A stretch of 64,000 nucleotides of DNA. It comes from Octopus vulgaris (taxonomy: Eukaryota). The notes beneath the pieces were generated by a model, which made no database searches, had not been told where the DNA came from, and saw nothing but the letters and a program-made list of their open reading frames with translations. This document shows positions 27,141 through 63,140 of this stretch, one piece after another. The position numbers and the translations under genes are program-made. The DNA is taken from contig OX597824.1 in the NCBI GenBank assembly GCA_951406725.2, forward strand, positions 39,432,001 to 39,496,000. The letters are read 5' to 3'. Each line of letters opens with the position of its first letter. Position 1 is the stretch's first letter.

Positions 27141-27560
27141 GATAAGGCGGCGAACTAGCAGAAACGTTAGCACGCCGGACGAAATGCGTAGCCGTATTTC
27201 GTCTGCCGTTACGTTCTCAGTTCAAATTCCGCCGAGGTCGACTTTGCCTTTCATCCTTTCGAGGTCGATAAATTAAGTACCAGTTACGCACTGGGGTCGA
27301 TATAATCGACTTAATACCTATGTCTGTCCTTGTTTGTCCCCTCTATGTTTAGCCCCTTTAGGGTAATAAAGAAACAGGTATTTCGTCTGCTGCTACGTTC
27401 TGAGTTCAAATTCCGCCGAGGTCGACTTTACCTGTCATCTTTTCGGGGATCGATTAAATAAGTACCAGTTACGCACTGGGGTCGATGTAATCGACTTAAT
27501 CCGTTTGTCTGTCCTTGTTTGTCCCTTCTGTGTTTAGCCCCTTGTGGGTAGTAAAGAAAT
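27141..27560 (+). mobile_element. Nested or dimeric SINE family A variant (two body-plus-tail units of about 185 bp) with 14-bp TSD
   Basis: TSD AGATATTAAGTATA at 27127-27140 and 27561-27574. Units at about 27193-27376 and 27377-27560. Confidence 0.9.
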
Positions 27561-27994
27561 AGATATTAAGTATAATTGCTAATCTAGCGCCTCACCTGAC
27601 AGCAAGCGTGAATCATAAATCACTGATAAACACTTGATTCGTAAATACAATATATCAGAGCTAACAAAAGAAAATCTTTCGCAATTTCCTTCCAAGAACT
27701 AATATCAATATCGATGTAGTTATTATGAAAGCAACGTACAGTGTAGCACATGTTATTCATCAATAGCTATTTAACAAACTTAAAACCTAACTGTCTATAT
27801 TTTAATGTGTCTGAAATGTGTTAAACCAGTAAATGACCAAGAGAAATACACTTCTTTAATAGGTCTTAGTTGTGTTAAATTGTTAAATAGCTATTAAGGA
27901 ATAACATGTGCTGGATTGCACATTGCATCCATAATAACCTCATCAATATTGATATTAGTTCTCAAACATCTTTATAAATCTGAAGCATCTACGT

Positions 27995-33324: not shown

Positions 33325-33387
<63 letters not shown>

Positions 33388-46169: not shown

Positions 46170-46719
46170 GTAAGAGGAGATGTCCAACTGTAATTAAAAA
46201 GCTATAACATACAGCAACAATTACTTATTAATAAATAAAGTCTAGGAAAAAGAAAAAAAAGAGACAGAAATTGAGAGTGAGCGAGGTTGTATGCGTGAGA
46301 GGGAGAGAGTGTGTATGTGTGTGTGAGAGAGAACGTGCGTGGATAAGTGTTTGTGTGCGTGTATGTATGTGTATGTAAAAGAGAGAAGGCGTGTGAGTAG
46401 GAAATAAGTATAATGAAAGAGATCGTGAGTGATGGAGTGTAACGGAAATATTTAAAAAATCAAGAGAATTACAAGAGGAGAACATATGGTGTGTAAGGAA
46501 CATGAGTAGGCATAAAAAAAGAAATTAGAAAATGAAAATTTACAAAAGAAGAAGAAAGTGAAAGTAGAAGGAAATGATAAATAAAACAAAGAAAATGGTG
46601 TGGCGGGGAAAAGCCGAAGCAGAAATGAAGAGAACAAAGAGAAACAATGAGGAAAGACGGGGTAAAGAAGGTGGAAATCCTAATGGAGCCTGAAAAACGA
46701 TTATGAGAGAACGATGAAA

Positions 46720-46766
46720 AAGGCGGCATTGGCAGCGAACTTGGCACGCTAGAGAATATGCTATAC
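46720..46766 (+). mobile_element. Diverged SINE family A head, probably the 5' half of the SINE split by the Tx1 element
   Basis: AAGGCGGCATTGGCAGCGAACTTGGCACGCTAGAGAATATGCT compared with the head at 27144, AAGGCGGCGAACTAGCAGAAACGTTAGCACGCCGGACGAAATGCG. Confidence 0.55.
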
Positions 46767-46769
46767 ATT

Positions 46770-49202
46770 AATTGGATTAACAAATCGATATCCGGAAGAA
46801 GCCGGAAACGAATCGGTCACTCGGAGGTGGTTTTGAAAGACGACATGCAGCTGAAGCACACATACGCATGCGCCTTTCTTTACTGAGGATGGTAATATAC
46901 GCAGCTACTGGCGCCAAGAACGGGGGTACCTGAAAAACGTCCCATAACTGCTACGGCTAATGCTGTGGTGTTACTGAAGTTAGGCAGATAGCAGCGGATT
47001 CTCATTTAGAGAATGTCTTTTCTCTTTTTCTGCTCTTATTGTCTTAGTGTGGATCGGTGCTCGCAGTGCGTTTGCTCTTCAGGTGTTTGTGAAGAATAGT
47101 TAACATCGAGGACTTTCTTGCCGAGCTACCACGCCTCTCGGGGTCGGATGCGGAGGCTTGCGAGGAGCCGATCACGCCTGGGGAGGTGACGGAGGCTAAG
47201 TCTGACTGTAAAGCGGGTAAGTCACTGGTACTTGATGGTCTTCCTTACGCGCTATATAAATGTATGCCAGACTTGTTCGGGCACCTACTGGCTAGCGTGT
47301 ACGCGAACTGTCAACAGAATGGGTTTATCCCCAGATCTGTGCACCGAGGAGTGGTGACGTCGATCAAAAAGGACCCGGACAAGGGGGACGTTATAGAGAA
47401 TTTCTGGCCCATCACTCTGTTAAACATAGCAGTGAAGATTTTGGCCAATGTTTTAGCAAAAAGGTTGGCGCATGTCGCGAATGGTATAGTCGGGGAAGCA
47501 TAGACATGTGCCATCCCAGGTAGAACCATTCAGGATAATCTCTATCTTATTTGCTATACCATAGAGAGGGTTCATGATAACAGTAGCAATGGTGGGGCAT
47601 TGGTGCATTTAGAGTAAAACTTTTTATAGGATCGACCATCAATACCTGGCGACTGTGCTTGCGCGGTTTGGTCTGGGCCTTGGCTTCCTCATGTGGTTCA
47701 TCGCTCTGTATCACAACATTGACTCGATAGTTCGGGTGAATGGTTTCCTTTAGAAGCCGTTCTGCATCAGACGCTCGGTTCGTCAAGGATATCCGTCCGG
47801 GAAAAGTCGGTCGGCTTGCAACTCGGCACCTGGGTTGGAAAATCGATGCCTCCAGACAGCGTTGTTGGGCGCTGGACGGAGGGTCCGGTTAAATTGCTCG
47901 GAGTTTGGTTTGGACTAGGACTCGAGATAGAGAAGAACTGGGCGGAGGTTTCGAGCAGGGTGGCTGCAATAGTCAAGACCTGGTCTTGGCGGTGGCTATC
48001 CCTGAAACGGAGGGCGGAGGTGGCCAATGTGTTTATTGCATCGGTGATAACCTACCGCGTGGCTGTTGGGCCCTGTCTGGATTCGTGGGTGATCAGGTTG
48101 GAAAGGCAGCTCTTTCGCTTTTTGTGAGGGGGCAAGTCGCCACTTGTGAAACGCTCTATCTGTTGTCAGGAGCCGTTAAAGGGAGATTTAGGGATGCCTT
48201 GGTTAATGATGCGTAGACATGCGTTGAGGTTGAGGTACCTCTAGATTCTCCTTGATAGTGAAGGGGTGTGGTCTCCGCTAGCCAGACAAATGTTCCCCAA
48301 GTTCAAAAGTTTTTGCGAACAGGAAGTCGGGTGTTCTCGTAGACTACATCGGGTAAGTCGTATATGGAGTGTCGTAAGGCCCTCCTGCTATTCCGGCGCA
48401 ACGCCAGCGGTGGGAGCTCTACATGTTTATTATATAGTGGGTTGCTAGAGTCTGGATGTGACGATGGCCTGGGAGTCTGTTCCACCGTACGTTCGTTTGA
48501 GAACGTTGGCGAATTTCCAAAAGTCCTTGACCTGGCAATGTTATAGGGGCACCTTGCCCGTTTGGGATAAGCTCGCAAGACATGGGAAGTCTCACTGTCC
48601 GACCTGTCCAAGATGCGGGGTGATAGGGAAACCGTTCCTCACGCTATTGCCCAATGCCCGGAGGTGTCTGAAATGTGGGTTTATGCTGAACACCTGTTGC
48701 CCGGCGAGGAAAGAGTACAGCTGTCGACTGGGTCAATTATAAAAATTGATCCATCGGAATTTTTAACAAATGAAGGTAAGAATTGTTTTCTCACTGTTGT
48801 TGCAATAGCGAAAGAAGCAGTGTGGAAGACTAGGATAAAAGCGATTAAGCCGGTTAACTTTATCTCCGCCACGAGGTAAGTTCATTTTTCACTTTTCACT
48901 TGAAAAGGAAAATATGGCTGGAGAAAAGGTACCTGTCGGAGAGTGCTGTGCATGCAAAGAACCATGTGAACAGGCTATGGAAGAAAAACAAAAGTTGAAA
49001 GAAGTACCAGCGACCGATCGGGGCTTATGGGGTGGGAGCGTGGCCTGATCATCGCTACATTTGTGTCATATTTGTATAGTATATTTCATTCGATTCTTAT
49101 ATATTTTATATAATTTTTATATTCATATTTATGTAATATCATAACGTGTTACTGACCCCAATCAGTTGTTTTGTCTCATTCTTTGTGGGTAATAAAGAAA
49201 TT
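46770..49202 (+). mobile_element. Tx1-clade (L1 group) LINE, internally deleted and decayed
   Basis: GKS..LDGLPYALY, ENFWPITLLNIAVKILA, AIPGRTIQDN, SVRQG, VKLLGVWFG, and zinc finger CPRC..ETVPHAIAQCP. 3' tail TTGTGGGTAATAAAGAAAT. Confidence 0.9.
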
Positions 49203-49360
49203 GGTATTTCGTCTGTCTTTACGTTCTGAGTTAAAATTGCGCCGAGGTCGAATTTTCCTTTCATCTTTTCTGGGTCGATAAACTAAGTACCAGTTGTGTA
49301 CTGGAGTCGATTTAATCGACTGGCACCTTCCCCCAAAATTTCGGGCCTAGAATAGAATAT
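49203..49360 (+). mobile_element. SINE family A 3' portion beginning at GGTATTTCGTC
   Basis: B-box, core and ordinary tail, with no head. Directly abuts the Tx1 tail. Confidence 0.85.
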
Positions 49361-62752: not shown

Positions 62753-63140
62753 TAAGGTGGCGAGCTGGCAGAAACGTTAGCACATCGGGCGAAATGCTTT
62801 GCGGTATTTCGTCTGCCGCTACATTGAGTTCAAATTCCACCGAGGTCGACTTCGCCTTTCATCCTTTCGATTAAATAAGTACCAGTTACGGACCGGGGTC
62901 GATATTTTCGACTTAATCCGTGTGTTTGTCCTTGTTTGTCATCTCTATGTTCAGCCCCGTGTGGGTAGTAAAGAAATAGGTATTTCATGTTTTTACGGAT
63001 TGAGTTCAAATTCCGCCGAGGAATTAGCCTTTCATTCTTTCGGGGTCAATAAATTAAGTACTAGTTGCGTACTGGGATCGATCTAATCGACTGTCCCCCT
63101 CACCCAAAAATTTCGGCCTTGTGCCTGGAGTAGAAAAAAA
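62753..63140 (+). mobile_element. Nested SINE family A: a Tx1-tailed copy inside an ordinary copy
   Basis: Head and core, then GTGGGTAGTAAAGAAATA|GGTATTTC at 62979, then a second core and an ordinary tail. Confidence 0.85.

Follow-up and report, generated by a model that had tools for sequence, protein, structure and literature searches.

Apparent site-specific insertion of a probable Tx1-clade LINE lineage into an abundant SINE of Octopus vulgaris

Introduction

SINEs normally exploit LINEs. In a stretch of 64,000 nucleotides of the Octopus vulgaris genome (contig OX597824.1, positions 39,432,001 to 39,496,000; hereafter the window), the 3' part of a decayed LINE runs directly into the 3' half of a SINE, and this arrangement raises the question of whether the LINE had used the SINE as its landing site. 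A preliminary description of the window had proposed that it did, with the front half of the same SINE just upstream of the LINE.

A 2026 repeat annotation of Octopus vulgaris reports 13 recently active L1-Tx1 families and assigns 11.6% of the genome to SINEs (PMC13282606). The words "target" and "nested" have no occurrence in its main text, and its supplements and library may contain the families described here. Abundant tRNA-derived SINEs were reported from octopus by Ohshima and Okada in 1994 (cited in PMC4758252), and the SINE of the window may be one of them. Searches of the open-access literature brought up no description of a cephalopod LINE that has a SINE as its target. SINE positions are counted throughout along an intact copy, whose first base is window position 33386, and the genome searched for relatives comprised 2.8 Gb.

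Results

The LINE copy and the SINE half in the window

The features of the locus are collected in Table 1. When compared with an intact relative (locus L068), the window LINE corresponds to ORF2 residues 421-1134 and has neither 5' UTR, ORF1 nor endonuclease; numerous stops and frameshifts interrupt what is nevertheless a genuine LINE fragment. Translation indicated that the 197-nt internal deletion takes out the reverse transcriptase (RT) segment with the catalytic ADD motif. Four ORF fragments from the window gave no match in Pfam (0/4) because they are too short and too decayed. Among named proteins, the closest relative belongs to Argonauta hians, at 61% across the RT region, and a tree placed the window copy in the oldest clade of its lineage. 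The junction itself was borne out as first described, with the LINE tail followed immediately by SINE position 50 (GGTATTTC). This SINE half scored 112 bits with a SINE HMM and is 88% identical to the SINE majority. Elsewhere in the window, a group of open frames of 100-196 codons was observed on the minus strand at 594-2703.

Table 1. Features of the window, in window coordinates.
Feature	Positions	Strand	Basis
SINE dimer: first unit with C50 head, body and LINE-like tail; second unit a body that starts at G50 and has this tail too	27144..27567	+	
Head-like stretch, described earlier as the SINE 5' half; probably not so	46720..46766	+	
Single-copy non-LINE spacer, common to related species up to 47079	46767..47105	.	
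Old LINE copy, retaining the 3'-most 40% of an APE-RT element of 5.3 kb	47106..49202	+	Alignment to intact relative L068 (blastn, tblastn)
Initial part of RT domain (residues 421-652 in the ORF2 of the intact relative)	47106..47795	+	Pfam RVT_1 on intact relative
Site of 197-nt internal deletion	47795..47797	+	L068 4694-4890 missing from window
Remaining ORF2 and C-terminal zinc-binding region (zf-RVT in relatives)	47797..48966	+	
LINE 3' UTR, terminus ...AATAAAGAAATT, without poly(A)	48967..49202	+	
Host SINE, comprising everything from a G-type position 50 onward, with box-B-like motif and T1-type tail	49203..49359 (end approximate)	+	
SINE dimer: first unit with G50 head, body and LINE-like tail; second unit a body with T1 tail, joined at its position 50	62754..63125 (end approximate)	+	

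Copies of the LINE lineage lie at one position of the SINE

Relatives were retrieved with a query restricted to LINE sequence (49040-49202), and 30 loci, the window among them, were fetched from the 40 scored. SINE position 50 follows directly 3' of the LINE in 30/30 of these (29 G, one A), and likewise in 30/30 copies of the young subfamily (29 C, one T), so that the unrelated 3' flanks which would have spoken against a landing site were not observed. A LINE-tail pattern whose flank was left free except for T as its fifth letter gave 92 matches, all of them site-like by hand count (53 CGTAT, 30 GGTAT and nine near variants).

On the 5' side, a SINE head together with positions 50-66 precedes 18/18 full-length young copies, a set of 20 loci minus one older and one truncated copy, and 17 of 20 further young copies. 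Among truncated copies, L152 and L162 directly adjoin a head and L158 a partial head. The 5' ends of older LINEs, 30 in number including three duplicates of one locus, are all preceded by the leader formed by SINE positions 50-63; before this leader comes a head in 16 cases and a SINE tail in 14. When older copies were chosen by their 3' ends, the head was absent at the 5' break in 27/40 (14/20 and 13/20), probably through later deletion. We regard it as very probable that this LINE lineage is real and that its copies are site-specific at SINE position 49/50.

A sister LINE family (L073-L092), young, with an ORF2 of 1132 aa and 72% protein identity, was examined at its 3' ends, and no SINE was found at any of 20 loci, one of which had lost its 3' end. 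Its copies are found mostly inside other LINE-like sequence, or else are arrayed head to tail at intervals of ~5.28 kb (C22, C27, C30). The SINE preference is therefore specific to the lineage and not an effect of SINE abundance. As for the two further occurrences of the junction that had been noted in the window, both (27361-27377 and 62960-62979) proved to be SINE-SINE junctions with no LINE body.

A short tail motif was also tried as a LINE marker. It gave 594 matches, of which only 181 continue into NRTAT, and it was rejected when 16 of 20 sampled non-junction matches turned out to be ends of tailed SINEs. No LINE 3' UTR accompanied any of the 20, and such matches are therefore not counter-examples to site specificity.

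Other arrangements were seen at the same site. Two loci (L099, L107) hold short derivatives with ORF1-like sequence and the LINE 3' end, most of ORF2 being gone. At four others (L200, L202, L203, L204) the LINE 3' end adjoins a further member of the family, whose leader and 5' UTR come next; this is stacking at the regenerated site.

The SINE halves are host copies older than the LINE

The SINE halves that flank the LINE are host copies which were present before it. Pairwise divergence among young copies was 1.3%, 0.6% and 0.9% in the LINE, as against 12.0% in the SINE head and 7.5% in the SINE body; among older copies it was 12.7% in the LINE and 18.1% in the SINE. Three SINE tail types occur downstream of older LINEs. 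The outer duplication of the split SINE is retained at 20 of 33 loci compared with 3 of 1056 mismatched control pairs (four of 37 loci had no tail, and L150, which duplicates L149, was excluded). The SINE segments are accordingly not a fixed part of the LINE, being older, varied and still bounded by their own duplications, and the proposal that an abundant SINE serves this family as its landing site is upheld by these host copies together with the 3' flanks. That the halves are instead fixed LINE ends, captured once or derived in the SINE 3' part from the LINE, within a unit that inserts randomly, strikes us as exceedingly improbable: an outer duplication around head, LINE and tail would be equally expected, the 5' copy of positions 50-66 appears partly element-borne and 27/40 old 5'-less copies have no head, but divergence in the SINE halves on either side is 6-9 times that of the LINE, the same LINE subgroups precede three tail types, the truncated L152 and L162 still adjoin a head, and LINEs also lie behind SINE tails, and before the leaders of other elements, at the same base.

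A repeat of 13-17 nt, corresponding to SINE positions 50-66, flanks intact LINE copies, and truncated copies show 1 and 7 nt. Between the 5' and 3' copies of positions 50-62 two variants are shared, four are confined to the 5' side and seven to the 3' side (L155 omitted), and with two of 13 variants shared the inner repeat is therefore not a clean duplication. It is probably in part a true duplication and in part a leader borne on the LINE RNA. For insertion of the LINE into the older SINE we propose that the element's own endonuclease would nick the SINE bottom strand at 49/50, and that the RT would prime at this nick and place the LINE by target-primed reverse transcription. When contigs were aligned to the whole locus, no joint skipping the LINE was found among those listed, the contigs breaking in repeats, and no empty allele of a filled site was seen.

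The head-like stretch upstream of the window LINE

The stretch at 46720-46766 had been described as the 5' half of the split SINE, which it probably is not, given an identity of 63% compared with 88% for the 3' half, the absence of a leader and a distance of 340 nt to the LINE. Its score of 41 is above the maximum of 30 among 3128 non-SINE tiles of the window, so that the likeness exceeds this null. The 63% identity to the SINE majority is, at the same time, below that of all 51 intact SINEs (lowest 78%; binomial p ~1e-5). A full-SINE HMM gave 2.1 bits (E 4.6), and a head-only HMM did not list the stretch at E<=10. It has no GGTATTTC leader, the sequence which precedes 30/30 older LINE 5' ends, and for an outer duplication around 46720-49359 the best match, with 3-5 mismatches in 14, was not convincing.

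The spacer between this stretch and the first base of the LINE is single-copy save for one weak match: searches of the genome with 46770-47110 and 46700-46940 returned the window itself and one weak match of 72%. The sequence of 46440-47079 has a colinear counterpart in a related species (organism C), which there continues into 30 letters belonging neither to the SINE nor to the LINE; organisms B and D share the 47106 junction with the window. We consider it likely that the real head and leader of the window copy, together with the 5' 3 kb of the LINE, were removed by a later deletion.

It is improbable that the stretch is nonetheless the genuine front of the host SINE, displaced by an insertion of 340 nt. 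Its orientation is correct, its end falls near position 47 and its score stands above every null tile, but the low identity and the joint absence of leader and outer duplication argue against this, as does organism C, in which the stretch is colinear with the spacer and no substitution is listed across 46713-46791, compared with 24 in the next 290 nt.

Two observations concern the spacer alone. Part of it (46932-47093) has a 67% match at one other locus (L032:1461-1621). In its single-copy portion at 46780-46920, promoter-like motifs are clustered, namely two CCGGAA, GCATGCGC, ATCGATA and TGGCGCC, which we take to be ETS, NRF1-like, DRE and E2F motifs; a promoter or first exon of the host may thus lie here, immediately 5' of the LINE.

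Protein domains and clade

Tx1 elements typically have a separate ORF1 with a CCHC zinc knuckle and not an L1-type ORF1. Pfam recognized Exo_endo_phos (APE), RVT_1 and zf-RVT in the ORF2 of intact relatives and zf-CCHC on two ORF1s, with no match to an L1 ORF1 family. Atlas neighbours carry zf-CCHC/RRM, and there was no clade name among them; a cluster look-up supplied no names either. The sole clade-named match among 120 listed was "Transposon TX1" (268 bits over 401 aa); human L1 ORF2p gave 166-219 bits over longer spans. Membership of the Tx1 clade is thus likely, though unproven, judging by this architecture and one clade-named match.

A candidate change of the favored base at the insertion site from G50 to C50

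Intact SINE heads exist in two forms, T45/G50 and G45/C50, which account for 54 and 46 of the first 100 among 30,179 exact heads. Junctions of a SINE tail with position 50 carry G50 in 99 of the first 100 of 32,189, and C50 is found in 0/30 older LINE leaders. In the tree, all 27 C-type copies form one clade (27/27, support 0.96), with tips of 0.5% for C-type compared with 4-5% for G-type copies. The tree has the form of a ladder which leads from the old clade of the window through younger G-site copies to the one C-site clade, in which intact ORF2s are retained; it was built without the sister-family rows above L078, the odd-numbered young rows below L140 and copies with <430 nt of the segment. 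Downstream markers are present in 4/36 young hosts, compared with 8/28 C heads (p=0.11) and 23/38 G heads (p=1e-5), and the young hosts therefore resemble C heads and not G heads. Exceptions to this pattern are L054, which lies downstream of a G-type SINE, and the 3/30 young hosts that carry the tail typical of G heads.

Fixed differences between C-site and G-site elements fall at 11 of 238 endonuclease (EN) positions and 18 of 893 positions elsewhere (p=0.035), a test in which each position was covered by 8-14 decayed G-type sequences; the enrichment is weak, with p=0.088 against RT alone. In L068 ORF2 numbering, positions 11 and 14 align with human L1 N16 and N19, beside N14, which we take to be catalytic. 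Position 142 is within the GDFN motif, for which the young clade has GDSN in 34/35 copies, and position 199 corresponds to T200 of L1, a residue of the hairpin loop. This loop of the L1 endonuclease has been tied to target choice (PMC1950540).

Old branches, then, lie on G50 heads and the youngest clade on C50 heads, and the endonuclease changes of the young clade would be the likeliest cause of the switch, a candidate to which we give roughly an even chance, with RNA-target pairing given clearly less and other causes less again. More tentatively, and with less than even confidence, we suggest that a SINE variant (T45G and G50C) escaped nicking at the site on which the LINE lineage and the tailed SINE copies land and grew to nearly half of the intact heads, after which the endonuclease of the young LINE clade retargeted it.

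The pairing explanation holds that the enzyme was unchanged and that read-through transcripts carrying the master's SINE flank pair with the nicked strand and select or overwrite the base at position 50. We judge it possible but on balance unlikely. Its appeal lies in a LINE which has no poly(A) and always continues into the SINE, in a 5' leader that reads TCGC/CCGC as against CCGT in the local target, and in the T1 tail, typical of G heads, which is found in 3/30 young hosts and 0/15 free C heads; pairing of element RNA with the target has moreover been proposed for SART1Bm and R1Bm (PMC7265360). It is opposed by two truncated copies which sit behind C heads even though the 5' end of their RNA went uncopied, and by the excess of fixed changes in EN over the rest of ORF2, of which three lie close to the N-terminal loop and another within the hairpin.

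Less probable still is an account with no escape, in which C50 heads were absent in the time of the old branches and the G bias of the SINE-tail junctions reflects a few amplified master dimers. C-type SINEs are indeed the most uniform group (8.8% pairwise compared with 10.8-21% for G types), and junctions are found in 184-nt arrays. The age of the C-type SINEs (~4.4% from the ancestor) nevertheless overlaps that of the younger G-targeting LINEs (4.1% tips), yet none of the 30 leaders has C, and the avoidance of G heads by young LINEs, with 54/100 available, is left unaccounted for.

A tailed SINE subfamily at the same base

The dimers of the window belong with a SINE subfamily whose T2 tail is similar to the last 35-45 nt of the LINE (83-88% identity) and resembles the tail of the sister LINE family just as closely. 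The genome holds 32,189 exact junctions of a SINE tail with position 50, which indicates that LINE and SINE share one insertion site; the tailed subfamily is present at unrelated sites too. It is likely a passenger of the LINE machinery, carried to the same base. A G junction comes next after 7 of 15 C heads, which fits replacement of the front of an old SINE by a new copy and fits master dimers equally well. Many SINE-tail junctions belong to 184-nt arrays, and a small number of master dimers may have given rise to these junctions by copying. Tailed SINEs were sometimes seen to be followed by SINE position ~17 (AGAAACGTTAGC) and not 50 (L068:6576, L006, L022, L214, L219), possibly a second insertion site.

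Discussion

The closest parallel among the systems considered is that of the crocodilian Tx1-Mar LINEs and their SINEU passengers, for which the Mariner-N4_AMi DNA transposon is the target and in which the SINEU heads derive from U1/U2 (Kojima 2015, PMC4494074). The two systems are alike in that a transposon is the preferred target of the LINE, and a SINE shares this target, with tandem insertions around the duplication. They differ in that a third element is targeted in the crocodilians, whereas the octopus LINE targets the SINE's own head at one base: the target is neither a Mariner nor headed by U1/U2 but the SINE itself, two copies of which had no snRNA match in Rfam and no tRNA match at E<=10. 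The octopus lineage differs further in that nearly all sampled copies lie at the site and in the change from G50 to C50 along the lineage. Target preference in Tx1 elements has been recognized where >20% of flanks lie in one repeat type (PMC4494074); here the SINE occupies the 3' flank at 30/30 older and 30/30 young loci.

Other LINEs with an APE-type endonuclease are likewise known to insert sequence-specifically into repeats, namely Xenopus Tx1L into Tx1D, Keno into U2, Kibi and Koshi into microsatellites and Tx1-9_AMi into Harbinger (PMC4494074, PMC1950540), but unlike in octopus, there is no SINE among the targets listed for them. R1Bm and SART1Bm (see also PMC1919474) are likewise site-specific APE LINEs, in which pairing of RNA and target may guide priming (PMC7265360); unlike the octopus element they are of the R1 clade, with rDNA and telomeric repeat as targets. 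In the octopus LINE the hairpin loop reads SNSDGSTR and is similar to the loop of R1Bm that was grafted in 2v0s. The working mode may be like that of Tx1L in Tx1D and of Tx1-Mar with SINEU, the difference being the SINE itself as target.

The usual roles would thereby be reversed, with the SINE as a renewable landing pad of the LINE that offers tens of thousands of sites. A tailed SINE inserting at the same base would account for the dimers and the 184-nt arrays of a major genome repeat. Old G-site branches and young intact C-site branches, separated by 11 endonuclease differences, make retargeting of an APE endonuclease testable with two proteins and two oligonucleotides. If true, SINE escape and LINE retargeting would amount to a chase between two parasites in one genome, which would provide dated before-and-after enzymes for a change of specificity at one base.

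With respect to the SINE's own origin, derivation from a tRNA is likely but unproven. ARAGORN found 0 tRNAs in the window, and the SINE head compared with 25 distinct genomic tRNA genes of six amino-acid types reached a best z of 2.7. By eye, and against the consensus, there is a box-A-like motif at ~13-24 and a box-B-like motif at ~75-86; the insertion site is between the two, and the LINE on landing would split the SINE's probable promoter. At a separate locus (L243:384-430), a tail of the sister LINE family lies ~1 kb from a tRNA-like gene.
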